The position numbers and the translations under genes were made by a program. Below, piece after piece: positions 10,860-62,936 of a DNA stretch of 64,000 nt. The notes under the pieces are model-generated. The model had not been told where the DNA came from and did not search any database. It saw only the letters and a program-made list of their open reading frames with translations. This stretch comes from a bacterium (GTDB lineage Bacteria > CG2-30-53-67), in contig CAKKPE010000138.1 of the NCBI GenBank assembly GCA_919901565.1, positions 11,936 through 75,935 on the forward strand. Reading direction: 5' to 3'. How positions within the stretch are numbered: the stretch's first letter is position 1; every line of letters starts with the position of its first letter.

Positions 10860-12521
<1,662 letters not shown>

Positions 12522-27600: not shown

Positions 27601-27971
27601 TGCAGCGGCATTTCAGCGAGGATCGCCTGGACCATCCACTTGCGGGCAAGGGGGGTGTTCACCCTGCCGGGGAAGGGAGATTCCTGGAAGATCTCCATGC
27701 AGAGGTCGAGAAAGGTCAGTATCCTGAGTCCGATGAACCCGTTGACGCCCTTTTGGGCAAGGATGGCCTCGCGGATGGCTTCGGCCTTGAGGTTGGAGGA
27801 GACCAGGACCATGACCATGTGGCAGCGGTTCTCCGTGACGGCCGGAAGAATTTCATTGAGAATGGTCTGCGTTTTTCCTGAGCCCGGCGGGCCGGTGAGG
27901 ATCTCTACATTGCACATGAGGTCTCTTTGTTCAGGTCCGTTCAAAAGGTTCAAAGAGCTTCTTGTATTCAT
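24690..27971 (-). CDS. addB: AddB-like helicase-nuclease subunit (degenerate helicase plus PD-(D/E)xK nuclease, C-terminal Cys cluster)
   Basis: The P-loop ILTGPPGSGKT, the nuclease motif IVDYKSGK and the C-terminal CPDYCELSPVCR (Fe-S-like Cys) are present. The gene lies upstream of addA on the same strand. Confidence 0.75.
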   Translation of the reverse strand: MNTRSSLNLLNGPEQRDLMCNVEILTGPPGSGKTQTILNEILPAVTENRCHMVMVLVSSNLKAEAIREAILAQKGVNGFIGLRILTFLDLCMEIFQESPFPGRVNTPLARKWMVQAILAEMPLQHLVEVRETRGLMDLVVDLIRTLKDGGVSSEEFLKKSLSAQASPRIIEAARIYHEYETRRRTRGLLDREDLFPLAAGILEQNPGSMTRLQKIFVTGFYDFTPIQLRLLAALSGLRNIEGIFITLPHVHGTGPGSTFTRRTLDRLDSVWPHAIIKPLSADEKDPVDPLHHLRKHFLNSEEIAPRIQCKGSIRILNSPGAYREVEEIARKIRRLQYGQGLSFKDFAVVFRSLGDYQDKVTEVFRSHGIPIRMGSGLPLRSNPLVRTVMGILEIPLGGYRREAVVRLIRSDYIRFEPLLKENLPPERFDILSREAMVHGGKEEWESRFASRIQYLDLNLKLLQQGSLESEELEKREERIKQGTKNIGDYQACARIIRALFKTIEALPGKAAPGRFAEAIEEMVRSFRMEEQISACPELRLVRRDQRGLDALRELLAQMVREYEASHSGMNIPLSEFVRILNHTLSEAQYIPDPPAEDAVLVTDAPGMRGLRRPVVFIGGLVEEVFPRAHPPDPLFREKDRIILNKTLGPDRWITLASHRREEEEVLFLLCAASAARTLYLTYPRTDAEGRELLSSRFMDRVWSLFEEGAIEKKEVSINDPLPDPEDIFRDKELLEYTFLNLSRPASVNPEAPSLFNLLARTRPHKLWPLLHGLRVTEDRNSGDGPYSGLLGAAAAALLREQEAPFSVTALERYGACPFTYFCERELKVQPVEEVEDEVEARDLGSLYHRILQRFYAAHLRETGTGINADNLEQARKNMHRTAEEELNRAEARGIPGHRKIWEVRKEEVHRTLDRFIDQEVEEHRETGDVPSHFEACFGMKPFQLNDPISSTEPLTMDSETGKIRILGKVDRIDLSTSGDKPFFSIVDYKSGKSAPGAAQIMKGESLQLPVYAAWAGTIFSNQRELKNGSFYLLRSGEKKTQIQNDENFKELMEASMRYIREYVEAIRQGKFPVTQKKCPDYCELSPVCRIREG

Positions 27972-40310: not shown

Positions 40311-41162
40311 TCATCGCTCACCCTTTGCGATCCTGCTGATCGTCGAATAATGAAGACCCAGATGGGAGGCGATTTCGGTCTGCCGATACCCATATTGCTC
40401 CACCGCTTTTATGATCAATAGCTGTCTCATCTGTCGGCTCATACGAGTCTCTTCCCGAAAGAGCTTCTCCAACGATGGACGGTGCGCATAACGCTGACTC
40501 CGGGGGATCTCAGGAATATCCTTGCATTTTTTAAGGTAGTCCGACAGCTTCTCGACAAAGCTTTCCTCTCCCAGGAGTGTCTGACCCCGGACCTCGTTCC
40601 ACATTGTCTTCTGTCCAACACCCAGGGATACGAACTGCCGGTACCCCTTTCCCGCTTCGCCTCTTTTCCCGTCAAACTGGCTGAGCACCCAGTCTGTTGT
40701 CAGGCAGGGATGGGGTTTTACCCGTCCTGCTGTGGCAAGGTAACTGGAGAATGCATAGTCCTCGGGCTTCGCAACCATTTTTGCACGAACCGGATTGAGC
40801 ACAACATATCGGCACACTTCAAGAAGGTGGCTGTCCTTCTGGATCAGGATGGCCTTGTACCGGCCCTGAAATATATGGCCTGTTTTTCCATGCCATTTAT
40901 TAAAGCGTTGCGTATAGAGGCCGTTCAGTTGGCGCATGCCGATGGAGAGATTTCCGTCCGGGGTTTCGATGAGGAGATGATAGTGGTTGGTCATGAGGCA
41001 GTAGGCGTGACAAAGCCAATGGTAACGTTTATTCACATGCTGAAGGGCATGGAGAAAGTTGTTGCGGTCCTGATCATCCTTGAATACCGGCTTTTTATCG
41101 TTGCCCCGTGAGGTCACGTGATAGACTGCGCCGGGATATTCTATGCGGAGGGGACGGGCCAT
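40311..41162 (-). CDS. IS200/IS605-like Y1 (HuH) transposase domain fused to a C-terminal HTH; RAYT-like
   Basis: The HuH motif is HYHLLIETP, with QGRYKA downstream. The C-terminal HTH reads YRQTEIASHLGLHYSTISRIAKG. The start is ATG at 41162 (MARPLRIEYPG); the longer ORF to 41450 looks like a spurious extension. Confidence 0.65.
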   Translation of the reverse strand: MARPLRIEYPGAVYHVTSRGNDKKPVFKDDQDRNNFLHALQHVNKRYHWLCHAYCLMTNHYHLLIETPDGNLSIGMRQLNGLYTQRFNKWHGKTGHIFQGRYKAILIQKDSHLLEVCRYVVLNPVRAKMVAKPEDYAFSSYLATAGRVKPHPCLTTDWVLSQFDGKRGEAGKGYRQFVSLGVGQKTMWNEVRGQTLLGEESFVEKLSDYLKKCKDIPEIPRSQRYAHRPSLEKLFREETRMSRQMRQLLIIKAVEQYGYRQTEIASHLGLHYSTISRIAKGER

Positions 41163-41324
41163 AAAAAGACAATAACAAGCGGGAAGGGAAAAGTCAAGCA
41201 GCAAGACCTGACCCTGGGTTTTCGAAGTGAAAAGGGCATTGACGCGGCACAAGAGCCGTTGTATGGTGATCATGAAACCGTTCAACGGTTTAAACAGTTT
41301 AAACGATTTAAATGGTTTTTCCCT

Positions 41325-42092
41325 ATGATCGATATTCACTGTCATATCCTTCCGGGACTGGACGACGGTCCTGAGAATTTTCAGGGGACTCTCGAGATGT
41401 GCCGCATGGCCGTTGACTGTGGGATCACATCTGTTTTTGCGACCCCGCATCTTTACAACAGCCTATTTACGACAAACAGGGCATCGATCCTTGATGTATA
41501 TGAGGAGACCCGGGCGGCCCTTGAATCTGAAGGGGTTCCCTTGAGCCTCTATCTGGGCGCTGATCTGCACCTGGTTCCTGACCTGGGGGAGAAGATATTG
41601 AAAAACCAGGCGCTGACCTTGAATAACAGCCGGTATTTCCTGCTGGAACTTCCGTCTACGATACTCCCGCCGAATTTGGACCAGGTCGTCCAGAAAATGA
41701 TCTCAGACAGTTTTGTGCCGATCATCACCCATCCGGAAAGAAACCCGGTAATCCTGAAACGGGAGGAGATTCTTTTTGACCTGCTGGAGCAGGGGGCCCT
41801 GTGCCAGATCACGGCCATGAGCCTGACCGGGGAATTTGGAAAAGATTGTGAACGTTTTGCCTGCAGGATGCTCGAGGCCGGCGCCGTGCATTTCATTGCC
41901 TCGGATGCCCATTCCACGGGCTGGCGCAAGCCCGATCTTTGCCCTGCGGTCAGCGTGGCCGAACAGATCATTGGAGCAGAGGATGCCCGGCGGTTGGTCA
42001 AGGACTATCCGGAAGCGATCCTTTCCGGGGGAGGCATAGGCCCGGTTTCGGTAAAAAGGCCTCCAAAACCCAAAAGGTTCTGGTTTTTCTGA
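41325..42092 (+). CDS. PHP-family tyrosine-protein phosphatase (CpsB/YwqE-like)
   Basis: The N-terminus MIDIHCHILPGLDDGP is the CpsB signature. Confidence 0.7.
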   Translation: MIDIHCHILPGLDDGPENFQGTLEMCRMAVDCGITSVFATPHLYNSLFTTNRASILDVYEETRAALESEGVPLSLYLGADLHLVPDLGEKILKNQALTLNNSRYFLLELPSTILPPNLDQVVQKMISDSFVPIITHPERNPVILKREEILFDLLEQGALCQITAMSLTGEFGKDCERFACRMLEAGAVHFIASDAHSTGWRKPDLCPAVSVAEQIIGAEDARRLVKDYPEAILSGGGIGPVSVKRPPKPKRFWFF

Positions 42093-42233: not shown

Positions 42234-42632
42234 GTGCTGGGGATGTATCCAGAGGATCTGAAATATTCGAAGGACCATACCTGGGTACGAGTTGAGGATG
42301 ACGAGGGGACGATCGGGATCACGGATTTTGCCCAGGAGAGCCTGGGAGATATCGTCTATGTAGACGTCCCCGAGGAGGATGAGGAGTTTGAGGCAGGGGA
42401 TGAGATTGCCGAGGTGGAGTCTACAAAGGCCACATCTTCGGTCATGAGTCCTGTCAGCGGGACGGTCATCGAGATCAACGAGGATATCGAGGACTCCCCG
42501 GACACGATCAATGAAAGCCCCTACGGGGACGGATGGATCGTGCGAATCAAACTTTCCGATCCATCTGAGCTCAAAGGCCTGATGAGTGCCGATGCCTATC
42601 AGAGTTTTCTGGAGGAAGAAGGCCAGGAATAA
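42234..42632 (+). CDS. gcvH: Glycine cleavage system H protein (lipoyl carrier)
   Basis: The lipoyl-lysine motif is EVESTKATSSVMSPVSGTV. The YSKDHTWVR sequence and the C-terminus are collinear with GcvH. Confidence 0.9.
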   Translation: MLGMYPEDLKYSKDHTWVRVEDDEGTIGITDFAQESLGDIVYVDVPEEDEEFEAGDEIAEVESTKATSSVMSPVSGTVIEINEDIEDSPDTINESPYGDGWIVRIKLSDPSELKGLMSADAYQSFLEEEGQE

Positions 42633-42722: not shown

Positions 42723-44120
42723 ATGTCTAAACGAATCGTGGTAATCGGCGCCGGGCCGGGCGGGTATGTAGCCGCAATCCGGGCCGCTCAGCTTGGGGCT
42801 GAAGTGACGGTTGTGGAAGATCAGGAGGTGGGCGGGACATGCCTGAACTGGGGATGCATCCCGACCAAGGCACTGGTCTATTCGGCCGAGGCCCTCGCTA
42901 TGGTCCGTCATGCAAAGGATTATGGTGTTGAGATCAGCGGGGATATCACTTTCAGCCTGCAGGCCATGATGGACCGGAAGAACAAGATCGTGGCCACACA
43001 GGTCAAGGGGATCCGCTCCCTGCTCAAGAGCAGCAAGATCCGCCTCATGGAGGGCAAAGGCTCACTTGAGGACGAACGGACCGTGAGGGTCAAGCTCCGT
43101 GACGGGAGTGAAGAGAAGGTTTCCGCAGACTGCATCATTCTGGCCACGGGCTCCCGGCCGGCCAATATCCCCATGTTCCCGTTTGACGGGAAGAGGATTA
43201 TATCGAGTGATGAGGCCCTGCTGCTACAGCAGGTTCCAAAAACCCTGCTCATTATCGGAGCCGGTGTGGTCGGCTGCGAGTTTGCCTTTATTCTGAACGC
43301 ATTGGGGGCCGAGGTGACCATGGTCGAGATGATGCCCCACGCCGTCTCCCTTGCCGATGAGGAGATCTCCATCCTCCTGGAAAGGGAGTTGAAAAAGAGC
43401 AAGATCAAACTCCACTGCAATCAGAAGATCCAATCCGTGAAAGAGGGTGCTGACGGGAAAATGGTCGCAACCCTGGAGAGCGGGGAGAAACTGGTCTCTG
43501 ACCAGGTCCTGGTTTCCATAGGGCGGGCATTCAACACAGAGGGATTGAACCTCGATGGTGTGGGTGTTGCCTGCGGGCCGAGAGGAGAAATCAAAGTCAA
43601 TGACCGCATGGAGACCAATGTTACAGGGATCTATGCCATCGGCGATGTCGTCGGCGGGATCATGCTGGCGCACGTAGCCTCGACCGAAGGGATCACAGCC
43701 ATTGAAAACGCAATGGGAATGGACCGGGCCATGGATTATCGGGTTGTTCCTTCGGCGATATTCACCATGCCTGAGATCGGGATGGTCGGGCTGACCGAGC
43801 AGCAGGCCAGGGAGCAGGGATATGAAGTCCGGATAGGGAGCTTCCCTTACAGAGGGCTCGGCAAGTCCCATGCCATGGGGAAGATCACCGGGATGGCCAA
43901 GATCATCGCCGATGCCAAGACCGACCGGATCCTCGGCATGCACGTCATGGGTGCGCACGCCTCGGACCTGGTCCATGAAGGGGCGGTCATGATGAAGATG
44001 GGAGGGACGGTACGCGATCTCGGAGAGACCATTCACTCACATCCCACACTTTCTGAGGCCGTGATGGAGGCGGCACATGACGTTCACGGGGTCTCCATCC
44101 ATCTCCCAAAGGAAAAATGA
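42723..44120 (+). CDS. lpdA: Dihydrolipoyl dehydrogenase
   Basis: The motifs VIGAGPGGYVAAIRAAQLG...GGTCLNWGCIPTK identify the enzyme. The length is 465 aa. Confidence 0.9.
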   Translation: MSKRIVVIGAGPGGYVAAIRAAQLGAEVTVVEDQEVGGTCLNWGCIPTKALVYSAEALAMVRHAKDYGVEISGDITFSLQAMMDRKNKIVATQVKGIRSLLKSSKIRLMEGKGSLEDERTVRVKLRDGSEEKVSADCIILATGSRPANIPMFPFDGKRIISSDEALLLQQVPKTLLIIGAGVVGCEFAFILNALGAEVTMVEMMPHAVSLADEEISILLERELKKSKIKLHCNQKIQSVKEGADGKMVATLESGEKLVSDQVLVSIGRAFNTEGLNLDGVGVACGPRGEIKVNDRMETNVTGIYAIGDVVGGIMLAHVASTEGITAIENAMGMDRAMDYRVVPSAIFTMPEIGMVGLTEQQAREQGYEVRIGSFPYRGLGKSHAMGKITGMAKIIADAKTDRILGMHVMGAHASDLVHEGAVMMKMGGTVRDLGETIHSHPTLSEAVMEAAHDVHGVSIHLPKEK

Positions 44121-44491
44121 ACATTGGAGAAAAGTCTTGACAGTTCTTTCCTATTTAGGTATTTTACCAGACACTCTTTCGTAAAAATTGAATAAAATTA
44201 ATAAGTTATAAGTAAATTCTAATATTAGAATTTATAATTAATTTTCAGAAATGATCATTATAATTTAATAAATTCAAAGCAATACCTTGTTCACCAGGAG
44301 GGAACGCTTACTCAACTCATTGATAAAGAAAGGGGGGAGAAGAGAAGAAGCAAGGGCATTGGAGAAAAGAGATGAGGGGAAAGAGATCTGATAATGAATT
44401 TTGGTTGAGCAAATCCGTCTTGTAGGATGATGCAATGATGAGTGGGATGTATCGAAAAATTTTATGAAACTTTTCAAGGGAGGGATGATTT

Positions 44492-45541
44492 ATGAGACAT
44501 TTTTTTAAAAGAGGGAGTATTGTTTTTCCCGTTGCATTGGCCCTGATGGTATTCCTTGCCTCTTCAGCTATGGCCAAGGAAGAATTCGGCAGCTTTCAGA
44601 AGGTGATCGAGGCGGATGGGGATTTCACTGAGGCTACGGCCGCCCTGGAACAGAGCATCGCCGGTTCCAAACTTGAACTCCTCGGTAAGATGGACATCAC
44701 GGTTCCGGACAATGCCCAGAAGGCCAGAACCTATGTCCTGACCTCTCCGACATTCAATCAGGCGGCTACGGCCAACGGTTTGGCTTCGGATGCGATTTCT
44801 GTGCTGATCTTGAGGATCGGCGTCTATGAGGCCTACGGCAAGGTGAATGTCAATATCGCCAATCAGGATGCCCTGGCCAATGTCTACTTTGAAGGCGAAA
44901 AGAACAGGGATGCCCTGATGTCCGCTGCAACTGCGGCCAAAAACGAGCTGATCCAGGTAGTCCAGGCGGTTTCCGGTAAAGTTGTAAATAAACAGCAGGA
45001 ACCGATTCGCGGTGCCAAAAAATATCAAGGCTACAACGGGGACTTTCCGGCCCAGATGATGGCCAAGTTCAGGGATTTCAGAAAGAGTCTTCTCCCGTCA
45101 AAAGAAGTGGAAGGGACAACGAGCCTTGATTCGGTCATTGATGACATAAAGAACAACGCCAGCCAGAGCCTTCAGGCCGACCCTGAAAAAGGGTGGAAGA
45201 TCATAGGCGTGAAGAAATTCAACGACAATGTTGCATGGATGGGGATCACCAATACCTATACTGAACTCAAGTGCGTAAACATCAATTCTGATTTCCGGTT
45301 CGGCGATAAGACCGATAACACCAAATATCCGGGAGTGGACCATGCACCCGCCCTTCCCCTCGAACTCGTCATTTTTAAAGCGGATAACGGTAAGTGGCGG
45401 ATCGCTCAGTACGGTGAGATGTGGAGGATGCAGCTTTACTTCTGGGATTCAGGATATGCAGCCTTTGCGAAGAACATGTTAATCCCTGAGAGCATCATGA
45501 ATCAGATTGATGACATGGTTAATGGGAAAGTAAGTAAATAG
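44492..45541 (+). CDS. Secreted protein with N-terminal DUF302-like domain and a C-terminal domain of unknown function (paralog A)
   Basis: A signal peptide is followed by SVLILRIGVYEAYGKVNVNIANQDAL, which resembles DUF302. The C-terminus ends with the W-R-M-Q-L-Y-F-W-D motif shared with the next gene. Confidence 0.5.
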   Translation: MRHFFKRGSIVFPVALALMVFLASSAMAKEEFGSFQKVIEADGDFTEATAALEQSIAGSKLELLGKMDITVPDNAQKARTYVLTSPTFNQAATANGLASDAISVLILRIGVYEAYGKVNVNIANQDALANVYFEGEKNRDALMSAATAAKNELIQVVQAVSGKVVNKQQEPIRGAKKYQGYNGDFPAQMMAKFRDFRKSLLPSKEVEGTTSLDSVIDDIKNNASQSLQADPEKGWKIIGVKKFNDNVAWMGITNTYTELKCVNINSDFRFGDKTDNTKYPGVDHAPALPLELVIFKADNGKWRIAQYGEMWRMQLYFWDSGYAAFAKNMLIPESIMNQIDDMVNGKVSK

Positions 45542-45580
45542 GAATACTGAAAGTTCATTGCCGGTAAGCCCTGCCGTCTT

Positions 45581-46777
45581 TTGACGGCAGGGCTTTTTCT
45601 TTGGCCGGACAATCCACCCTTCGACAAATTTGTTGCACACCAGGATGAAAATAGTTTCTTGTCAACTTTGGAAGCTTGTGATAGATTGCATGAAAATGAT
45701 AGAGGCCTGAATGATTCGGAGGGGTTCATGAGACAACTCAAATGGACATCGTTTTACCTGTTGCTCCTGTTCTTCTATCTGGAGACGCCATCGCATGCTT
45801 TTTTAGACGATTTTCGCAGAGACATCAAGGAGCGGCTGGATCCGGGACAGAGCTACGGTCTTTACCAGAAGGTCCTGGAGGTGGAGGCTCCCTTCGAGTT
45901 CGTCTGTTCAAGAATAGAGACCAATATCAGTCAGTCCGACTGGGAACTCATCTCCAACTGGGACCTGGATGCGCCCGATGTCTGCCATACCCGTGCGAGA
46001 GTCTACCTTCTTCGCAACCAGGACTATGATCGTACGGTCCTTTCCAAGGGGCCCCGTCACCTCATCTTCCTTCCTGTCCGGATCGGGGTTTATGAAGAAG
46101 GGTCCAAGGTCGTGGTGGTATTTACCAATCCCGAGTTCCTTACAAAAGTTTTCTTTGCAGATCTCCCCTTCTCGGAACAGGACGAGATGATCGGCCTGGC
46201 CAAGGAGGTCCGGGAGGATCTGGTCACCTTCTGTGTCAAGGGGATGGAAGGGACCATTCTCACGCAGCAGCTTCCCCCCTTTCGCAATGACCGGGACGTT
46301 CGTTTCTTCTGGAGCCGGTTCCTGGACCATCTGGATATCGTTCAGGCTGTGCCGGTTCGCAAGGATCCTGCCGTGACCCTGAAAGAGGTCTGTGACCGGA
46401 TCGTGAAGACTTCATCCAAAAGCGAATCCGGGTGGAAGGTCATATCCCGCACCATGGTTGAAGACCAGGCCTGTATTCTTGGGGTGACTCAGAAGAATAC
46501 CGAGGACCAGGCGTTGAACTTCAGCGGTTTAAAGTGGCCTGCGATCCTGGGCAGAGAACCCTGCAGCGGGATTTACCACCTGACACAATTCCCCATCGAG
46601 ATTCTGGTCTTCGTGGAAGAGGGCGAGGTCCGCGTCGGGATCCTCGACCAGTTCTGGCGCATGCGGTTCTACCTATGGGACAACCCGTACAGAACCGGAA
46701 GCATCTTTCTTGCACGGGATCCCAATTTTTCAAGCAGGATCTACAAGTCGCTTCTGCAGTTAATCCAGAATCCATAG
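45581..46777 (+). CDS. Paralog B of the DUF302-like secreted protein
   Basis: The DUF302-like region reads LIFLPVRIGVYEEGSKVVVVFTNPEFL. The C-terminus FWRMRFYLWD matches paralog A. The start is uncertain; a hydrophobic segment follows an internal Met (MRQLKWTSFYLLLLFF). Confidence 0.5.
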   Translation: MTAGLFLWPDNPPFDKFVAHQDENSFLSTLEACDRLHENDRGLNDSEGFMRQLKWTSFYLLLLFFYLETPSHAFLDDFRRDIKERLDPGQSYGLYQKVLEVEAPFEFVCSRIETNISQSDWELISNWDLDAPDVCHTRARVYLLRNQDYDRTVLSKGPRHLIFLPVRIGVYEEGSKVVVVFTNPEFLTKVFFADLPFSEQDEMIGLAKEVREDLVTFCVKGMEGTILTQQLPPFRNDRDVRFFWSRFLDHLDIVQAVPVRKDPAVTLKEVCDRIVKTSSKSESGWKVISRTMVEDQACILGVTQKNTEDQALNFSGLKWPAILGREPCSGIYHLTQFPIEILVFVEEGEVRVGILDQFWRMRFYLWDNPYRTGSIFLARDPNFSSRIYKSLLQLIQNP

Positions 46778-46810
46778 CTTTTAAATCTGTCAAAAAAATA
46801 TAAATAAATC

Positions 46811-46839
46811 TTGACATAATCATATACCTGATTTATGAT
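46811..46839 (+). promoter_or_regulatory. Candidate sigma-70 promoter for the FadL-like gene
   Basis: TTGACA, a 17-bp spacer, then TATGAT. Confidence 0.5.
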
Positions 46840-47047
46840 TTCTAAAGATGTATGTTTAAGGTTCTATCCTAACCCTTGAAATAAGAATAGTTTTTTCCGT
46901 TTTTCCTCGATGAAATAAATGGGCGAAAAGCCTGCTTTCGGAGTGGAAAAATGAGGCAAAGGAGGTGATCATCGGGACATAATTAAGATCCTGGTCTTCC
47001 AGGCGGAAGTTCGTCTGCATTCTAACCTTCAAGAAAGGAGGAAGAAC

Positions 47048-48454
47048 ATGAAACGAATACTTTTATCTGCAGGTCTATTTTTATTCCTGTTCTGTTTTGC
47101 CGCAACGTCCTTTGCCACCAATGGTTTTCAATTGATGGGTATCGGCTCCACCCAGAAGGGTATGGGAGGCGCCGTGACCGCTGCGCCTGAAGATGCCATG
47201 ACCGCCATCACCAACCCGGCGGGTATGGCTGTAATCGGCAATCGGGCTGATTTCAACGGTGAGGCCTTCATGCCCAAACGGTCCATGGACTTTACAGAGT
47301 TGCCGGCCAGTCCTTTCATGGGGCCAGGAAAACAGACCTCGGGCGGATCCGAACTCTACGGGATCCCGGCTCTCGGTTGGACAGCACCGGCCTTCGGCCG
47401 TGATAATGTCTTCTTCGGCGGCGGCATGTATGCCACGGCCGGAATGGGAGTGGACTATGATATCACCAACGCAGGCAGTGGGTTTGGCGATGCCGACGTT
47501 TTCACGTCCATCCAGTTCTGGAAGATGCAGCCTACCTTGGCTTGGAAGGTGAACGAGCAATTGGCCCTGGGCGTGGGCGTGGACTTCGATTACCAGCAGG
47601 TGGAGATTAAAGAGGTCTTTGAAGCAGCCGCTTTTGGAGCGTACCCGAGTCTCGGCGCGGGCATAAGCATGGATCTGGGGCGTGCCATCGGGGTTTACGG
47701 AGGTGGTCTTTCTTTAGGCGCCATCTATAAGGTCAACGATATGGTGACCGTGGGTGCCTCTTATATCTCCAAGCAGTGGTTCCCGGACATGAAGTACCGT
47801 TTAGGTTCCGGCGCCGTTAACAACTTCCCCTACAAAGGTTACCTTGCCGATAATACCTCCGAAGGGACATACAAGCTGGACATGCAGTTCCCGCAACAGG
47901 CGGCTATAGGGGTAGCCGTGAAACCCATGGATGCCCTGACTGTGGAACTGGATGTAAAATGGATCAACTGGAAAGATACCCAAGACAAGGTCAAACTGTC
48001 CGGCGATTTTACACTCATTGATGCAAGTGATGCATTAGTTGAACGCATGGGTGGGGCGGCTCCAACTCCAGTTACTGCCTCAAGTATTGATCTTCCCTTC
48101 GGCTGGAAAAACCAGTGGGTTTTCGCAGTGGGCACCCGGTACGCTGTGAACCCGGACCTGACCCTCCGCATCGGGTACAACTATGCCAAGTCTCCCATCG
48201 ACGAAAAAGATGTCTTCAACAATGTTGCTTTTCCGGCCATTGTGGAGCAGCACCTTGGTCTTGGGTTGACCTACAACCTCGGTTCCCATTGGGCCGTTTC
48301 CGGCTCTTATATGAGGGCTTTTAAAGAGGAGCTTTCGGGAAAGAAGGATAATCCTCAGGCGTTCCAGGATGTAGGGTTTGCTTCGGATACCACAAAGACC
48401 AAGATCTCTCTGGAAGAGAATTCTGTAGGCGTTCAGGTTAGTTACCGGTTCTAA
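47048..48454 (+). CDS. FadL/TodX/OmpP1-family outer-membrane hydrophobic-compound channel
   Basis: A signal peptide is followed by GFQLMGIGSTQKGMGGAVTAAPEDAMTAITNPAGMA, the FadL N-terminal hatch motif. The C-terminus ends YRF. Confidence 0.75.
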   Translation: MKRILLSAGLFLFLFCFAATSFATNGFQLMGIGSTQKGMGGAVTAAPEDAMTAITNPAGMAVIGNRADFNGEAFMPKRSMDFTELPASPFMGPGKQTSGGSELYGIPALGWTAPAFGRDNVFFGGGMYATAGMGVDYDITNAGSGFGDADVFTSIQFWKMQPTLAWKVNEQLALGVGVDFDYQQVEIKEVFEAAAFGAYPSLGAGISMDLGRAIGVYGGGLSLGAIYKVNDMVTVGASYISKQWFPDMKYRLGSGAVNNFPYKGYLADNTSEGTYKLDMQFPQQAAIGVAVKPMDALTVELDVKWINWKDTQDKVKLSGDFTLIDASDALVERMGGAAPTPVTASSIDLPFGWKNQWVFAVGTRYAVNPDLTLRIGYNYAKSPIDEKDVFNNVAFPAIVEQHLGLGLTYNLGSHWAVSGSYMRAFKEELSGKKDNPQAFQDVGFASDTTKTKISLEENSVGVQVSYRF

Positions 48455-48488: not shown

Positions 48489-48527
48489 AATCCCCGGGGG
48501 AGTTCTTCTTCCCCAGGGATTTTTATT
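48489..48527 (+). terminator. Rho-independent terminator after the FadL-like gene
   Basis: The hairpin ATCCCCGGGGGagttcttcttCCCCAGGGAT is followed by TTTTATT. Confidence 0.55.
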
Positions 48528-48611: not shown

Positions 48612-50168
48612 ATGAAAAATCTTGGCTTCAGGAATGTTGGGAATGTTTTCTGGAACCTTCCCACCGGGGCGCTTTATGAGGCGATCGTGAACCGGCGGGA
48701 GGGTCTGGTCGCTCACAAAGGGCCGATTGTGGTCCGGACCGGACATCAAACCGCAAGGACCCGAGAGGACAAGTTCGTGGTCAAGGATTCGGCCACAGAC
48801 CAGCACGTCTGGTGGGGCAAGGAAAACCATCCCTTTGAACAGGAACGGTTCGAATCCCTGTACAACCGTCTCAAGGCATACCTCCAGGGCAAGGATATTT
48901 TTATCCAGGACTGCTACGCCGGTGCGGACCCCAAATACCAGGTCCCGATCCGGATCATCACGGAGAATGCCTGGCACAGCCTTTATGCCCGGAACATGTT
49001 CATCCAGATCCAGGATACGGAGGCGCTCAAGAACCATGTTCCCGAATGCACCATCATCAATGTCCCCCGGTTCCATGCCTTTCCTGAATTCGACGGCACC
49101 CACTCCGAGGCCTTTGTGATCGTCAATTTCGGGAAAAAGATCATCCTCATCGGCGGGACCAGCTATGCCGGGGAGATCAAGCGTTCGTCTTTCACGGTGC
49201 TGAACTTTTCGTTCCTGTCTGAAGAGAACATTCTTCCCATGCATTGTGCCGCCAACACGGGTACCGGTGAACAAGACGATACGGCGATCTTCTTCGGGCT
49301 CTCCGGTACCGGGAAGACGGCGCTCTCCATGTCGTCTGACCGCAGACTGATCGGGAATGACGAACACGGCTGGTCCGATCACGGGGTCTTTAATTTTGAA
49401 GGAGGGTGCTACAGCCGTGTGGCGAACCTGACCTCGGAGACCAATCCCTTCATCTTTCGGTGCACCGAACGGTTCGGCACCATTCTCGAAAACGTATCCA
49501 TGAACATGGAGACCAGGAGGATTGATCTCTCCGATACCACTCTGACCGATAACACCCGTGCAACCTATCACATCTCTCAGATCGAGAATTCAGTGGCCTC
49601 GGGCATGGGCGGGCATCCAAAGAACATCTTCATGCTGACCTGTGATGCATCGGGCATCATGCCTCCGGTGGCCAGACTCAGCACGGAACAGGCCCTCTAT
49701 TACTACCTTTCCGGATATACCTCGAAAATTGAATCGGGGAGGCCGACGGCCACCTTTGATTCCTGTTTCGGCGCCCCCTTTCAGGCCCTATCTCCGCTGG
49801 TCTATGCGAGGATACTGGGAGAGAAGATAGCGAAGCACAATGTCAAGTGCTGGCTGATCAATACGGGCTGGGTCAAGGGCCCCTGCGGCGTGGGAGAGCG
49901 GATCGACATCCGGCTTTCCAGGGCGGTTGTGAAAGAGATCCTCTCCGGGCGGATGGATAAGGCCCGGATGCGCAAAGATCCGGTCTTCGGATTTTCTGTC
50001 CCGGAGCATTGCGAGGGGTTTCCTGTCGAACTCCTCAATCCGAAACAGAATTGGAAGAATTCTTCGGAATATGACGCGCTGGCCCAGGAACTCGCCAAAC
50101 AATTCAAGAAACATCTGGAACAATTTTCCTCGAAAATTCCCGTGGAAATTCGCAAGGCCGGGCCTTAG
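48612..50168 (+). CDS. pckA: Phosphoenolpyruvate carboxykinase (ATP)
   Basis: The kinase motif GLSGTGKT is present, and the N-terminus and 518-aa length are PckA-like. Confidence 0.9.
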   Translation: MKNLGFRNVGNVFWNLPTGALYEAIVNRREGLVAHKGPIVVRTGHQTARTREDKFVVKDSATDQHVWWGKENHPFEQERFESLYNRLKAYLQGKDIFIQDCYAGADPKYQVPIRIITENAWHSLYARNMFIQIQDTEALKNHVPECTIINVPRFHAFPEFDGTHSEAFVIVNFGKKIILIGGTSYAGEIKRSSFTVLNFSFLSEENILPMHCAANTGTGEQDDTAIFFGLSGTGKTALSMSSDRRLIGNDEHGWSDHGVFNFEGGCYSRVANLTSETNPFIFRCTERFGTILENVSMNMETRRIDLSDTTLTDNTRATYHISQIENSVASGMGGHPKNIFMLTCDASGIMPPVARLSTEQALYYYLSGYTSKIESGRPTATFDSCFGAPFQALSPLVYARILGEKIAKHNVKCWLINTGWVKGPCGVGERIDIRLSRAVVKEILSGRMDKARMRKDPVFGFSVPEHCEGFPVELLNPKQNWKNSSEYDALAQELAKQFKKHLEQFSSKIPVEIRKAGP

Positions 50169-51136: not shown

Positions 51137-53221
51137 TCATTTTCCCCCCGATCTTGATAAGATTCTTTTTACTTCCTTGCTGTCGGTGAGCGGTTTCTTG
51201 CAGGTGTAATTCCTGCAGATATAGGCCGCGGGCTTGCCTGCCAGCGGGACTTTGCCTGCAAGGAAGGGGATGCCGTCCTCGAGTCCGGTTTGACCTTCCG
51301 GTGCAAATGCCACGACCTTGTTGGGGGCAAAGGGCTCCCGGACCGCCCGGACCATGGATTGCGTGGCCGATTCATCCCGTGTCCCGGTCACGGCGATCTC
51401 CATTGGATCGCTTACAAGGAAGTCCAGCGCGGCAAGACTCTGGGCATAGGCATTCGGCGAATCAGCCATGGAACCCGATATCCGCTGCAGGGTCTTGATC
51501 GCGGCCTCTTTCAATGGTGCTTCACCGGTGAATTCAAAGAGCCTGAGAAGGTTGAGCATGGCCACGGCATTTCCCGAGGGCTTGGCGCCGTCGTGGAACT
51601 CCTTGCTCCGGGCGAGGAGCGCAGGATCTCCATCCCGGGTGAAGAAGAAGCCTCCCTGCTCCGAATCATAGAAGTGCTCCATCATGGCCCGGTTGAGCTC
51701 AAAGGCCCTCCGGATCCATTCCGGGTTGAAGGTGGCCTGGTAGAGTTCAATCAACCCCTGTACGAAAAAGGCGTAATCATCCAGGTACGCCGGGATCCCG
51801 GCTTCTCCGTCCCGGTAGCACCGGAGCAGGCCCTGCTCTGTGAGGAGGCGCCGGACCACAAAGCGGGCGGCCTTTTCTGCAGCCTCGGCGTAACGGCGGT
51901 CATCCAGGACCTGGGCCGCATAGGCCATGGATCCGATCATCATGCCGTTCCAGGCCGTGAGGACCTTGTCGTCCCTGTGGGGCCGGACCCTTTGTGACCG
52001 GGCCTCCATCAGGAGCCTCCGGCCCTGAGAGAGGATTTCATTCAGTTCATTGAGGGGGATGTCCTGTTCCATGGCAAACGCCTCGGGCTCGATCCATTGA
52101 TGCAGGATGCTCCGGCCCCCTTCAAAATTTCCGTCCCTGGTCACACCGTAAAACAGGTTGAAGATTTTTGCGTTACCGGGCCCCAGGATGGATTCAACCT
52201 GTTCCGGCATCCAGACGTAGAAGGCCCCCTCCTCCCCCTCGCTGTCCGCGTCCTCCGCAGAATAGAATCCGCCCTCGGGATCGGTCATATCCCTGAGTAC
52301 ATAATCGAGGATCTCCCGTGCAGTTTCTTTGTATTCGGCCTTGCCCGTGACCTGAAAGGCTTCAACATAGACAAGGGAGAGAACCGCATTGTCATAGAGC
52401 ATCTTCTCGAAATGCGGGACCAGCCACTGTTCGTCCGTGGAATACCGATGGAAGCCGCCGCCGATCTGATCGTAGATCCCTCCCCGGGCCATGGACTCAA
52501 GGGTTTTCTCAACCATGTTCAGGGCCTCAGGCGAGCCGGTCCGGTGGTGATGACGAAGCAGGAAGGAGAGGGCCATCCCCTGTGGGAACTTGGGCGCAGT
52601 CCCGAAGCCGCCGTGCACCGGGTCAAAGTTTCTTGCGATTCCCATGAAGGCCCGGTCCAGCAGTTCCGGCCCGATCTTTGCCTGCGTTTCAGCCGAAGCT
52701 GAGCCTCGGATCACCTAGGTCAGCCGGTCCCCGCTTTTTACGACATCCTGGGGGTTCTCTTTCCAGAGTTTTACGATCTTGGGGAGCAGGGTCGTCATTC
52801 CGGCCCGTCCCCACTTGTCCCGCGGAGGGAAGTAGGTCCCCCCGAAGAAGGGTTTGAGGTCCGGCGTGAGAAAGACGTTCAGGGGCCACCCCCCGCCCCC
52901 GGTCAGGGCCTGCACCGCTGTCATGTAGATCTTATCCAGGTCAGGGCGCTCCTCCCGGTCCACCTTGATGCAGATGAAATCGCGGTTCAGCAGGGCTGCG
53001 ACCTCCTCGTCTTCAAAGGACTCCTCTTCCATCACGTGGCACCAGTGGCACGTGGAATATCCGATGGAGAGGAAGATCAGCCTGTTCTCTTTGCGTGCAC
53101 GATTTAGCGCCCCGGCGCCCCATGGATACCAGTCTACGGGATTGTAGGCATGCTGAAGCAGGTAAGGGCTCTTCTCCCCGATCAGGTGATTGGGCCGTCG
53201 GTGGTTTGGCTGCTTGGTCAT
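51137..53221 (-). pseudogene. DUF255/YyaL thioredoxin-domain protein interrupted by one in-frame TAG
   Basis: The N-terminal part (53221..52718) has the thioredoxin motif CHWCHVM. TAG at 52715..52717 is followed in the same frame by GTG and VIRGSAS...GGFGTAPKFPQGMALSFLL, the continuation of the same family. Confidence 0.6.
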
Positions 53222-57740: not shown

Positions 57741-60700
57741 ATGAAGAAAAGACACACTTTGCTTGGTTTGAAAATATTCGTAGTTTACTTGCTGGTTCTC
57801 CTGAACACTGCAATGCCTTCCTGGGCTCTCGACTCGGATGGAGATGGCATTGATGATGGCCTGGACAACTGTCCCAATACCTATAATCCCTCTCAGATAG
57901 ATCTGGATAGTGATGGGATGGGTGATGCATGTGATGACTATACAGACTCTCTCGATCAGTCCGTTTGGATGACTTTCCTTTCATCCGCCACAGCTCCGGA
58001 AAGTTCAATCTCTCCACAGGATATAACTTCCAGGATGAAGGACAGTTTGCTGTTTAATGAAGAATTTATCGTGCAGAAAAATAAGGGGAAATATTATACC
58101 TTGAGTTTTCGCTCCGACCTCGAAGCAAGCGGTCTTTCATCTCTTTATTTGAGTATCTATGTGAATATATACGGAGGGCCGACACAAACGGCGCACCTAT
58201 ATGCCTATAATGCCGACGGTGATTTAGTGAATACGTCCTTGGCATTGCAGTACACGCTTAACCAGGGGTGGAATGATCTGGATGTTGGCCCGTTTCTTCC
58301 GTTAATGCAAGGATTCGGGTTTGTGAAGTTCAGGGTCTACGCCACAGTCAGCAACGCTTTCGCGGTTTCCGAGGCGTACTTTACCGGAGACCTGCTTGTG
58401 CGAGAAGAACCAAACCAGGCCCCTGTGGCCGCCGCAAACGGTCCTTATAGCGGAATTTCCGGCGTTCCCATTTCATTTCGTAGTAACGGCTCGAATGACC
58501 CTGATGCGAATGCCATCACATTTCTTTGGGATTTTGGAGATGGTTCGACATCCACGGAAGCCAATCCGACATATACCTACACCTCAGCCGATACCAACAC
58601 CGTCACCCTTACAGTAACGGACTCGAAAGGGCTGTCAGATACCGACACGACCACCGCCACCATATTCAACAGCTCCTTCGAAACCATAAAACCCACCGAT
58701 GCATTCAACTCCGAAGGCTGGACAAACTCGTATAACGGCTATGACGCGGATATGAATTCTTACAGCTATGTAAAATCTCCCGCTGCAGTACCATCCATAT
58801 CCTTCGGCGGATCTGCCTCCGGTGAATCAACAAACGCATGGCAGAGCAAGCTTAACTATTGGAATGCAGCATGGCTATCCATTACTTTCGAGGCGTCGTC
58901 CGCAGCCAAGAAGGATGACTTGATCGAGATTGTAATCACAGACCGGAACGGAAATATAAAACATACAATGGTTGCCCCAACGCCGCAAGTCTGGCCCAGA
59001 CAAGAACTTGTTAAGAAACTGAATATGTCGGACTGGGGGGATGGGTTCAGTAGCATCGCTAATCTGCGGGTGCGAATCAATGGGTACAGAAAAAAAGGGG
59101 CGGACGGTGCGCAACCCAGGGTTTACGACGTTCATATCGATGGAGACGCTGCACCGGATACGAAGACCTATACGAGAGGCGTGTACAATGTGCTCCCATT
59201 AGACTCAACTGATTTATCAGTTGATTTTTCGCCCGCAGAAATCACGAATGTGGATTCCGATGATGATAAGAGGGTATCCCTATTTGCGCCATCCAATCAA
59301 TACCCAATGCACCTCTTCAAGCAAAAGGCCCCCTCCCACAATGTATCAATTATGTGGAACGGTCAGATCAGTCAGGGAGGAGTTGAGGCTTATGCACAAT
59401 CGTTTACGCCTAATCACTCGGGTGACCTCACTGCAATAAGAATATTTTTTGAAAAAACAGGGCAGCCCGGCGGGTTGTTGAGAGTCCGAGTGAAATCTGA
59501 ATTGGGCGGCGTCATTCTTGCCGAGAGCAATCCTGTAGCAGAAGCTACTCTTGATATAACTGGAAGTTGGAAGGCATTCACTTTTGCTGATCCTGCACCA
59601 TTGGTGGCGGGAAACACATATTATATAGAGATATGGCGGGATCAGGCAGACTTTATCAATTTTCCTGAATTAGTGATAAGGAGTTGTTCAGACATCCAGG
59701 CTTCTGCATGGCCGCGTAGTAATGGAGATTGGCCAGACATTACTACGTCCTCTCCCGACCCCATTTTGTTTGAGGTTGATTTAAATAATACTTTAGAGGT
59801 TAGTACCCTTGGGTGTATTATACCTATCACACCCGAGAGATCCATTTATGGCCTTGATTGGAGGAACATCTACCTGGAAGCTTATAACCGAACCACCTCT
59901 TCCTGGGTTCAGTTGGATACGGCCTTGTATGATGGTTCAACGACCGATGTTGACCTTTCCGGAACGGTGATTTTAGATGATTATTTCGATACGAACAACT
60001 GGATTGCTGTCAGGGTTTATTCGGATACCAACCCGCAGAGGGGATATAGCTTGGGCACGGACATGATAGGGATTGCTTCAGTAAGTGGAGAGATTAAAGT
60101 CGATCCTTTATTTTTGGATTTTGGATATCAGCAGACGGGTAGCGTGTCATCTTTGAACCTTGCAATATCCAATCTCGGCATGCTGGATTTGATGATCGGG
60201 ACAATTTTCTCTCCTTCAGCACCGTTCTCGGTTTCCTCTGATGGCTGCTCAGGCCAGACACTCGCTCCCTTGGCATCTTGCACTGTCACGGTAGCATTTA
60301 ATCCAACGTCTGAGCAGGCATTTTCAGATACCATGATCATCACTTCCAATGATCCCAATCATCCGAACATCACGGTGAATCTTAATGGGGTCGGAATCGT
60401 TCCATTGGCTTCTTTGACAGGAATGGTCACGGACTTATTGTCCGGCTTGCCATTGTCAAACGTTATGGTCGACGTGACCGATTCGCTGACCATGCATTCA
60501 GCAACCACCGATTCCAACGGCACCTACACCATGACCGGCTTGGCCGAAGGTAGTTTCACAGCAACTTTTTCAAGGTCCGGTTATGTGCCGCAGACAGCAA
60601 CCGGCACATTGACCGCGGGGGATACACAAACGTTTGATGTGCAGCTGAGCCCTGTCCAGGCCCTCAGCATTTCCATCACATCTCCGGCGGACGGCTCGGT

Positions 60701-62936
60701 CTTCAACTCATCTCCTGCTGCCGTGACAGGCACAGTGACAGACAATGCATCCGTCACGGTGAACGGTATTCCCGCTGTGCTCTCCAACGGCACCTTTACG
60801 GCTTTGATTGACCTCGCCGAGGGGACGAATACCATCACGGCATCTGCCTCGGACACATACGGCCAGACCGCATCGGACAGCATCACGGTGACCCTTAGCA
60901 TTTCGCAGGCTCCGATAATAAGCAATATTACGGTGACCGGCATCACCGCGGATTCAGCCGTCATCACATGGACCACGGACCAGCCCGCGGACAGCCTGGT
61001 GGACTACGGAGAAACAGTATCCTATGGAACCCAGGCCGCCGATTCAAACCTGGTCACGGCCCACGCCATCACTTTAAGCAGCCTGAATCCTGGTACGGCC
61101 TATCATTTCAGAGTCACATCCAAAAACGCAGAGGGCCTTTCCTCCTCATCCGGGAACAGCACCTTTACCACCCAAGGTGCTTTGTTTAATGCAGTAGCCC
61201 TTGGAGATTACGGCAATGTCACGGTCATGGAAGTGACCGGGAGCTATGATGCCGGTAATCCTGATGGTACCATAAACGATTCTCCGAGGCAGGCCATCGC
61301 AAAGGAGTTCTACAAGAATCATGCGGACTCTTATGACTTTCTTGTGATCTTTTCCAGCTTTGACTTCACCATGCCCGAACCTGCCGCAAAGGCATTCTAT
61401 CTCGAGGTTAAAAATGATACCCAGGGGATCGGAAAACTGCTTTTTAATAACTCCGGCCTGTACGGGAGCTCAAAACTCCAGGGCATCATAGATATGGGCA
61501 ATATCACAGCCATTATTTCGAATCCTGTTGACCCTATGTCCGATGATACCATTTCTACCCTTGCACATGAGCAGATGCACAGATGGGGTGCAAGTATTAA
61601 GTTCAGAGACGCATACGGTAATGATAGCACCGCACTTCTTGGAAAAGACGGGACCCACTGGAGCTTCCTGCTTAACTCCTATGCATCGGTTCTTTACGGC
61701 AATGACTGGATGGATAATGGAGACGGCACCTTCACATCCACAGGCGGCAGTAAATATTACAGTCCTCTTGATTTGTATCTCGCAGGTTTTTATGACAAAA
61801 CACAGGTTCCTCAGATGCTTCTTATTGATAATCCATTGATTGATGCAACAGGATTGCCTGAGGTCGGTGCAACGATTTCAGGGATCGCACGATACATCAC
61901 GATAGATGATATTATAGCGTCGGAAGGAGAGAGAATTCCAAATGTCTCCACATCACAAAAGCCCTTTAAAACAGCTTTTATACTGATAACAAGACCGGGG
62001 ACATTCGACAGCAATGTATTGCCCGGCATTGAGACAATAAGGAGCGCATGGGCAGGAAGATTTACAGAACTTACACATGGCAAGGGTATGATAATGGATA
62101 TTGCTCCATCAATTGCATTAGCTATCGGTTCTCCTTCGGATGGTGAAACGATAGCTGAACCTGAAGTGACAGTCAAAGGCGCTGTTATCAATAACACAGG
62201 GAATGAGACAGGAGTGATAGTAAACGGTATTCCTGCAACAGTATACGGCACGCAGTTCATAGCTGAAGATGTCCCATTGACAGAAGGATCAAATACCATT
62301 ACAGTCACAGCGACAGATACGGCTGGTATTGCGGCAACATCATCAATACCCGTGAACGCGGTGACAACCGGCGATTATATAAAGCTCTATTCCAATATGG
62401 AATCGGGAATATTACCTCTTGAATCAACATTAAAAATTGACGGCTCCTTCAGTATCACAAACTCAGGCTTGAATATAACTGGCCCCGTACAGCCAACAAT
62501 TCTCTTGTCAAGTGCTGATGAATATAGAGTTAAATTCATTGCTGAGGGAATCTATTTCATAACAGCGAGTACAACCGGACCTGATAATAATATCTATCAG
62601 GATACAATCGCGGTAATGATTTTCAATAAGACGCAGCTTGACGAACTTCTTAAAATGAGATGGGAGAGTATGAGGGGGCAGCTTTCAAGTCAGGATGTTG
62701 ATGGCGCGGTAGGATATTTCGAGACAAATTCTCATGAAGTATATAGGAATCAATTTACGGAATTATCATCCATTCTGCCTATCATAGGCAATGATATGGG
62801 ACAAATTCAATTGCTTACAATTAAAGATAATAGAGCCGAGTACGAAATAATTGTCACGAGGAATAGTGTTACATATTCTTTCAATCTCTTGTTTGTTAAA
62901 GATGTAAATGGATTCTGGAAAATAAGGAAATTCTAA
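57741..62936 (+). CDS. Giant secreted multidomain protein (1731 aa): TSP type-3 Ca-binding repeats, PKD, choice-of-anchor-D-like, CarboxypepD_reg-like, Ig-like, FN3, HExxH motif
   Basis: A signal peptide is followed by [36 protein letters not shown] (TSP3). The PKD domain reads [13 protein letters not shown]...[12 protein letters not shown]. The FN3 reads [23 protein letters not shown]. The HExxH motif is [10 protein letters not shown]. The region has lower GC. Confidence 0.8.
   Translation: [1731 protein letters not shown]

Follow-up and report, generated by a model that had tools for sequence, protein, structure and literature searches.

A FadL-family outer-membrane channel encoded downstream of two secreted paralogs raises the question as to which compound such a set of proteins could handle, and whether the paralogs serve the channel. 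The set lies at positions 44,492 to 48,454 of a 64,000-nucleotide (nt) stretch of bacterial DNA (hereafter the window: positions 11,936 to 75,935 of contig CAKKPE010000138.1, assembly GCA_919901565.1, GTDB lineage CG2-30-53-67) and consists of three open reading frames (ORFs), all on the plus strand; ORF1 and ORF2 encode the paralogs X1 and X2, whose homologues are called here the X family, and the third encodes the channel (Table 1). The answer that we favour, with a probability of about 0.4, is that the FadL channel and a periplasmic DUF302 carrier may import free octanoate or lipoate for the lipoylation of GcvH or LbpA.

The earlier note on this DNA had placed a DUF302-like domain at the N-terminus of each paralog, followed by a separate C-terminal domain common to both. 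At the level of sequence profiles, the Pfam DUF302 model (PF03625) matches X2 in its N-domain only (26.8 bits, cutoff 23), X1 matches neither this nor any other Pfam model even at E<=1, PF03625 is matched at E<=1 by only 5 of 43 X-family members, and a sequence-profile search of the PDB returned nothing significant. An hhalign comparison of the two halves of X1 matched over no more than 21 columns (P 0.0065), in the strand LRIGVYE / LPLELVIF; this is inconclusive by itself, and a fold comparison was therefore needed. In a two-domain structure model of X1 (predicted template modelling score, pTM, 0.84), both halves have the α/β fold of the solved DUF302 proteins. The C-terminal region of about 180 amino acids (aa) is, as modelled, a second, strongly diverged DUF302 domain with no detectable sequence similarity to PF03625, which replaces the separate domain of the earlier note, while the N-terminal assignment stands by fold in X1 and by Pfam only in X2. 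Solved DUF302 proteins (PDB 1J3M from Thermus thermophilus, 1Q9U from Geobacillus and 7TJ1 from Brucella) are single domains of about 126-131 aa; in comparison, X is secreted, has 349 aa and joins two domains of this kind through a conserved linker.

X1 is laid out as a signal peptide (residues ~1-28), an N-domain (~31-174), the conserved linker (183-196) and a C-domain (~200-343). It shares 26% identity with X2 over 297 aa (BLASTP E 9e-32), so that the tandem paralogy first proposed is borne out; of the two proposed lengths, 349 and 398 aa, the second does not hold. The 398-aa version of ORF2 (45581-46777, from a TTG) is the longest possible reading, and its true start is almost certainly the ATG at 45728, which gives 349 aa, because a GGAGGGG Shine-Dalgarno sequence sits just 5' of this ATG, because the 14 full-length orthologue clusters span 343-370 aa and are mostly of 349, and because the supposed 5' extension contains a conserved promoter (45659-45687) and begins at a TTG that falls within a terminator hairpin (45566-45595). 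Export signals, assessed by eye and not with a predictor, are present in all three proteins, in line with the signal peptides noted before for the paralogs: cleavage would follow MRHFFKRGSIVFPVALALMVFLASSAMA (before K) and MRQLKWTSFYLLLLFFYLETPSHA (before F) in X1/X2, and ATSFA (before TNG) in FadL.

The X family is small and sharply defined: the 661 X1 homologues are all unnamed or "hypothetical" and measure about 345-355 aa, and an exhaustive profile search recovered only 165 clusters (at 50% identity), many of them fragments, among 1.84 billion representatives. Identity between its Nitrospirota and Gammaproteobacteria members is 40-46%, and the W-R-M-x-x-Y-x-W-D motif, described earlier as conserved between the two paralogs, is invariant in 43 of 43 family sequences. 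The invariant Arg, Tyr, His, Glu and Trp residues, which include R79-x-Y81, would fit a specific ligand or partner site. X2 is the divergent, lineage-restricted member, with homologues in only 15 clusters that are all at least 64% identical; of the 106 positions conserved in the family it retains 39, and the linker motif is missing from it. Its subfamily has three invariant cysteines (C86, C249, C279) and two or three near-invariant ones that the main family is without; one of them, in P-C-S-G, precedes the family-invariant His by five residues, and these cysteines could form disulfides or a sulfur- or metal-binding site.

The channel assignment made by the earlier note is upheld by a full-length match to the FadL model PF03349 (147.6 bits, cutoff 29.7, 5e-43, model positions 3-421 of 421), and the protein has a mature N-terminus beginning TNGFQL after SFA, an NPAG hatch motif (AITNPAGMAV at residue 56) and a C-terminal aromatic end (VSYRF). 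It was considered and rejected as an orthologue of the E. coli-type FadL (26.1 bits against the NF007988 equivalog cutoff of 585). It has many relatives at 44-53% identity and is 47-48% identical to the FadLs of the lipoate-assembly operons of Thiohalospira halophila (locus L089) and of a gammaproteobacterial metagenome-assembled genome (MAG; L092). These two FadLs would be lipY by position, an assignment that rests on synteny with the operon lipS1-slpl(AB)-lipT-lipS2-lipY of Thioalkalivibrio sp. K90mix, in which lipY is a "putative fatty acid transporter" (Tanabe et al. 2023, PMC10332631); the name is a putative assignment in a figure legend, without experimental function. The same paper shows that the sLpl(AB)-LipS1/S2 pathway starts from free octanoic acid, and it mentions no DUF302-type gene after lipY. 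While the T. halophila and L092 FadLs share the operon position of LipY, the window fadL does not directly follow lipS2 in such an operon and adjoins gcvH-lpd, upstream of it, instead. FadL in this position (as the putative lipY) and the DUF302 fold, noted before in sox clusters, were already known.

In the 93 loci that were examined (classified by tblastn, with neighbour proteins identified by Pfam), several recurrent arrangements were found. Nitrospirota relatives of the window (type A, eight loci) have the order cpsB-gcvH-lpd-X1-X2-fadL, with FadL in all five loci that extend far enough; the upstream GcvH is kept with the module in L001, L006-L011 and L091, and Lpd is a conserved upstream neighbour too. 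In Woeseiaceae and Chromatiales (type B), the order is hdrA-shdrH-hdrC2-hdrB2-hyp-lbpA-arsR-fadL-X-(SufS-like, 570-580 aa), where hyp is a hypothetical gene and the ArsR regulator is BigR/sHdrR-like; FadL is present in every type B locus that has upstream DNA (29/29), the incomplete loci being one truncated FadL-X (L040) and seven truncated X-(SufS-like). In L042, the coding regions of lbpA/arsR and of arsR/fadL overlap by a few bases and X begins 7 nt after fadL; lbpA, arsR, fadL and X therefore form one operon there. The type B FadL belongs to a different subfamily, only 22-29% identical to the window type, and X-type proteins therefore pair with FadL channels of two subfamilies. Type E (four loci, unclassified bacteria and Marinimicrobia) has the order lbpA-slpl(AB)-lipS1-lipS2-...-X-(FeS/NrfD fusion)-(molybdopterin oxidoreductase), X following lbpA-slpl(AB)-lipS1-lipS2 in L059 and L079 and lipoate-ligase and radical S-adenosylmethionine (SAM) genes in L085. 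In types B and E, the GcvH-like proteins score below the GcvH equivalog cutoff of 115.85 (Woeseiaceae 74, L079 104), as expected for LbpA. In comparison, the window GcvH lies above this cutoff and its Lpd is also canonical, which rules out that the window GcvH is LbpA; placement in an sHdr-LbpA cluster is found in about 29 gammaproteobacterial X loci and not among the window ORFs scanned.

A more distant version of the pairing occurs in the cultured sulfur oxidiser T. halophila DSM 15071, with the order hdrB2-lbpA-dsrE-lbpA-radical SAM-LplA/B ligase-flavin adenine dinucleotide (FAD) protein-radical SAM-FadL-(303 aa)-(141 aa)-LplA-like, and in L092, with ligase-FAD protein-radical SAM-FadL-(DUF302-flagged protein). 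The proteins of about 300 aa encoded 3' of FadL in these two loci are 50% identical to each other and are remote relatives of X (hhalign with the N-domain, E 5.7e-6 and 4.9e-4); they share with X an H-x-P-x-L-P-x-E-V/L-L-V motif in the C-half, and the 303-aa protein has a signal-peptide-like N-terminus. FadL is absent from the remaining arrangements, namely a single X amid multihaem cytochrome, DsrE, rhodanese, ArsR and DsrE2 genes in a related lineage (type A', three loci), X behind a secreted Sel1-repeat protein in Sulfuricaulis, Muproteobacteria and others (type C, about 27 loci), and soxY-soxZ-soxA-(soxX)-soxB, two half yeeE genes, X, metallo-beta-lactamases and TauE in Woeseiaceae (type D, five loci). 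The earlier note had allowed for the paralogs not occurring with FadL elsewhere; the pairing does recur in other phyla. The aromatic or fatty-acid direction that it had taken is not where the neighbours lead, the recurring ones being lipoyl-carrier, lipoate-assembly and sulfur-oxidation (sHdr, Sox, DsrE) genes.

Other genes also recur beside X. The SufS-like class-V aminotransferase of 570-580 aa lacks a signal peptide, lies directly 3' of X in nearly all Woeseiaceae shdr loci (L036 8013-9749, L042 8105-9817, about 35 other loci) and scores below every cysteine-desulfurase equivalog cutoff; it also stands beside the yeeE genes in one sox locus (L075 4023-5771, minus strand). The Sel1-repeat protein (PF08238 1.6e-40), just 5' of X in place of FadL (L004 6952-7692, about 26 other loci, the taxa being Sulfuricaulis, Muproteobacteria and Acidiferrobacterales), is a possible protein partner of X. 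A fused 4Fe-4S/NrfD membrane protein and a molybdopterin oxidoreductase (Psr/Soe/Ttr-like) follow X in L079 (8398-9999 and 12847-14996, with a GmrSD restriction enzyme gene inserted between them), L082 (6896-8503 and 9945-12794) and L085 (8077-12084). Small proteins of about 141-148 aa without a Pfam match are encoded, in three different types of cluster, beside X, its relative of about 300 aa or lbpA (L079 6531-6977, L089 9547-9972, L042 4250-4678).

How could these proteins act together? In the mechanism proposed here, the FadL-type channel, equivalent to the LipY of sulfur oxidisers, would admit the cargo across the outer membrane, and X1 and X2 would carry it through the periplasm. As fused DUF302 pairs, X1 and X2 could be an intramolecular version of the DUF302 dimer, TT1751 being such a dimer; the high pTM of the two-domain model (0.84) would be in keeping with dimer-like packing. 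The cargo, most likely free octanoate or lipoate, would then be passed to the cytoplasm for the lipoate:protein ligases that modify lipoyl carriers, GcvH here and LbpA in the sHdr sulfur oxidisers. We favour this uptake of octanoate or lipoate because a fatty-acid-type channel, a periplasmic DUF302 fold and a ligase pathway needing free octanoate fit together, and because FadL-X adjacency arises in separate lineages, with differing gene orders and two FadL subfamilies; every FadL-X pairing (types A and B, T. halophila and L092) adjoins a lipoyl-carrier gene or a lipoate-assembly operon. Its base is observed (gene content, both folds, export signals by eye, separate conserved promoters, recurrent linkage), and from this we infer that X binds a ligand, what that ligand is, the direction of transport and the contact of X with FadL. 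In more general terms, a periplasmic binding or processing system for a hydrophobic compound, as the earlier note had it, is still the best description, and the module itself is real and conserved.

More specifically, and with rather more doubt, tandem-DUF302 proteins might be dedicated periplasmic shuttles for FadL channels; in bacteria dependent on the sHdr-LbpA pathway, they would carry octanoate/lipoate or hydrophobic zero-valent sulfur from the outer membrane to the inner one. The proposed role would be that of the periplasmic carriers LolA and MlaC, which act as a soluble shield for hydrophobic cargo between the membranes; their folds are unrelated to X, and nothing here points to an ABC partner in the inner membrane. 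We know of no characterised FadL-family channel that has a dedicated periplasmic partner protein.

Several observations weigh against the import of octanoate or lipoate. FadLs as similar to the window channel as those of the lipoate-assembly operons (45-52% identity) sit among unrelated neighbours in L090 and L093, and orthology of the window FadL to LipY specifically is therefore only putative. X without FadL is found in lipoate-free contexts, next to sox/yeeE (5), DsrE/rhodanese (3) and Sel1 (~27) genes, and acids of eight carbons may not need a FadL channel. None of the roughly 38 window ORFs scanned, three very large ORFs being excluded (Table 1), is an sHdr, Sox, Dsr or lipoate-ligase/LipS gene. 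Finally, the linker NGDGPAKMMAKFR and the motif GEMWRMQLYFWDSGY, the two most conserved segments, are modelled at low confidence; a lid or a surface that binds a partner would be possible roles for them.

The main rival cargo is hydrophobic zero-valent sulfur (S8, organic polysulfanes), which FadL would admit and the tandem-DUF302 protein carry or process before YeeE/SoxT-type import and sHdr-LbpA oxidation. X occurs in shdr operons, downstream of a BigR/sHdrR-like ArsR repressor gene; elsewhere its neighbours are soxYZAXB with split yeeE genes and TauE, or DsrE with rhodanese and DsrE2, or the FeS/NrfD and molybdopterin oxidoreductase pair that follows it. The X2 subfamily, moreover, has invariant cysteines next to the conserved His. 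From the literature, single-domain DUF302 genes occur in sox clusters of SoxCD-less organisms (PMC5037610, PMC11034169), a FadL protein of Chlorobaculum tepidum has been proposed to move hydrophobic sulfur chains (bioRxiv 10.1101/172254), and the route of sulfane sulfur into the cytoplasm is stated to be unknown (PMC11582611). The sox-cluster DUF302 proteins (Acidithiobacillia, Thiobacillus, Sulfitobacter) are of the same fold family, periplasmic and in the kind of neighbourhood, sox genes with YeeE/YedE, that X has in the Woeseiaceae loci L067, L068 and L071, but they have one domain and about 190 aa, and no FadL partner has been reported for them. We nevertheless regard sulfur as a rather unlikely cargo: the window neighbours are canonical GcvH and Lpd with no sulfur genes among the ORFs scanned, the main X family is without an invariant cysteine, the sox and DsrE contexts lack FadL, and each FadL-X pair has a lipoyl-carrier or lipoate-assembly gene next to it. 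The octanoate/lipoate and sulfur readings are not independent of each other, since sHdr clusters themselves include LbpA and the genes for its lipoylation.

Characterised members of the FadL family (FadL, TodX) carry hydrophobic compounds such as long-chain fatty acids and aromatics. This, like the occurrence of 45-52%-identical FadLs in unrelated contexts, would suit a generic uptake of a hydrophobic carbon substrate (long-chain fatty acid, aromatic or alkane) unrelated to lipoate or sulfur, which the neighbourhoods make improbable: no beta-oxidation, oxygenase or other catabolic gene adjoins any of the ~90 loci examined, and the repeated neighbours are lipoyl-protein and sulfur genes. X could also be a periplasmic enzyme, such as a hydrolase or lyase with polythionates or polysulfides as substrates, and its link to FadL would then be indirect, given its unusually dense invariant polar residues (E53, R79, Y81, Y112, N124, Q168, R173, S266, H284, E291, R312, D319) at 40-46% identity between phyla; a sox-cluster DUF302 protein has been speculated to be a trithionate hydrolase (PMC5037610). 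We give this little credence, as the close linkage to FadL, with genes that overlap, points to a partnership in transport and as the literature searched records no catalytic activity of a DUF302 protein, which agrees with the earlier note that DUF302 has no established function. Two Met/Trp/His-rich motifs, GDGPAKMMAKF and GEMWRMQLYFWD, have a composition reminiscent of Met/Trp/His Cu(I) sites such as that of CusF and would make X a periplasmic metal-binding protein, for example for Cu(I). This seems very improbable, the first motif being entirely missing from X2 and no metal-resistance or metal-transport gene lying in any context examined, although DUF302 appears next to CusF in a list of genes that co-occur with another protein in Acidithiobacillia (PMC10512742).

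The three promoters of the module come from a scan for the sigma-70-like consensus, the number of such sites in the region being not above chance; in alignments with the Nitrospirota relatives, the -35 and -10 elements of all three are conserved. At the X1 promoter, CTTGACAG and the -10 region are kept in L006, L008, L009 and L010; at the fadL promoter, which the earlier note had singled out as strong, the -35 is kept in four relatives, and CTTGAC and the T/A positions of the -10 are invariant in five sequences. Hairpins with different stem sequences occupy the position of the X1 terminator in six relatives (L001, L006-L009, L011). Because the promoters are conserved and the terminator position is kept by differing hairpins, X1, X2 and fadL would be three conserved, separately transcribed genes, as predicted from these signals; three promoters and one terminator rule out a single operon.

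The X1 leader (44166-44491, about 325 nt) is long and AT-rich as first described, with 38% G+C. The 68-nt polypurine tract placed in it (44321-44388) is the most purine-rich window of this length in the 64 kb, about 4.6 standard deviations above the mean; it is enriched to 87% and is not a pure purine run. A G/A-rich run there, which contains many GGA/AGGGG motifs, persists in six relatives while the remaining leader diverges; it could act as a regulatory element in the RNA or bind a protein. In the fadL leader, the CAAAGGAGGTGAT box resembles the true Shine-Dalgarno region and opens no consistently conserved small ORF. An Rfam scan of the leaders and the locus gave only sub-threshold chance matches and no riboswitch.

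Table 1. Features of the module and of its surroundings in the window (positions are those of the window).
Feature	Position	Strand	Remarks
GGDEF diguanylate cyclase	15029-16210		fused C-terminal PilZ cyclic di-GMP receptor domain
Very large ORF outside the ORF scan	20498-23998	-	1166 aa
Very large ORF outside the ORF scan	24690-27971	-	1093 aa
IS200-like Y1 transposase	40311-41450	-	C-terminal HTH_23
Glycine-cleavage H protein (GcvH, lipoyl carrier)	42234-42632	+	PF01597 2.4e-45; TIGR00527 160.3, cutoff 115.85
Dihydrolipoyl dehydrogenase (Lpd)	42723-44120	+	TIGR01350 543.9, cutoff 408.8; Pyr_redox_2 and Pyr_redox_dim domains
X1 promoter-like site	44137-44165	+	TTGACA-17-TATTTT; 10/12 consensus positions
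Purine-rich stretch in X1 leader	44319-44388	+	87-88% purine
X1 (ORF1)	44492-45541	+	secreted tandem-DUF302 protein (as modelled), 349 aa
Intrinsic terminator 3' of X1	45566-45595	+	13-bp stem, 9 G-C pairs, T tract
X2 promoter-like site	45659-45687	+	TTGTCA-17-TAGATT, extended -10 TG; -35 and TGTGTTACATT-type -10 kept in relatives
X2 (ORF2)	45728-46777	+	divergent X1 paralog, 349 aa from ATG 45728
fadL promoter	46811-46839	+	TTGACA-17-TATGAT; 11/12 consensus positions
Conserved CAAAGGAGGTGAT box in fadL 5' leader	46957-46969	+	~80 nt 5' of start; columns invariant in 5 relatives
FadL/TodX/OmpP1-family outer-membrane channel	47048-48454	+	468 aa, LipY-like
Terminator-like hairpin 3' of fadL	48496-48514	+	weak consensus match only
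ATP-dependent phosphoenolpyruvate carboxykinase	48612-50168		
DsbH/DUF255-thioredoxin and GH88-like gene	51137-53221	-	split by one in-frame TAG (52715-52717), then GTG
Very large ORF outside the ORF scan	57741-62936	+	1731 aa

Some features of the surroundings are recorded for their own sake. The phosphoenolpyruvate carboxykinase gene separates fadL from a rubrerythrin gene in the window, likewise in L008 and L091; in L001, L007 and L011 the rubrerythrin gene lies directly 3' of fadL. The IS200-like transposase stands between MqnE/MqnC-like radical SAM genes and cpsB, and is absent from this position in the relatives L001 and L091. The DsbH-like gene has as its counterpart in L001 a single 741-aa ORF, and its split form may reflect a pseudogene, an error in sequencing or a genuine division of the gene; selenocysteine at the in-frame stop is ruled out, the stop being TAG.

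In the literature searched, we found no description of a tandem-DUF302 family, of its systematic pairing with FadL, or of its occurrence at shdr, lbpA, lipoate-assembly and sox loci, and searches on DUF302 with sulfur, sHdr with FadL, sHdrR, and Woeseiaceae with Hdr gave no paper that connects DUF302 with sHdr or lipoate. The DUF302 fold is widespread and has been solved several times, yet no function is known for it; the sLpl(AB)-LipS1/S2 lipoylation pathway requires free octanoate, the source of which is unexplained. The pair formed by FadL and a tandem-DUF302 protein is a concrete candidate for the supply of octanoate or for the delivery of sulfur to the cytoplasmic sHdr system, and T. halophila DSM 15071 is a cultured carrier available for its study. 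If tandem-DUF302 proteins do act as periplasmic shuttles, they would be the first soluble partner known for the FadL family and would give the DUF302 fold its first function.

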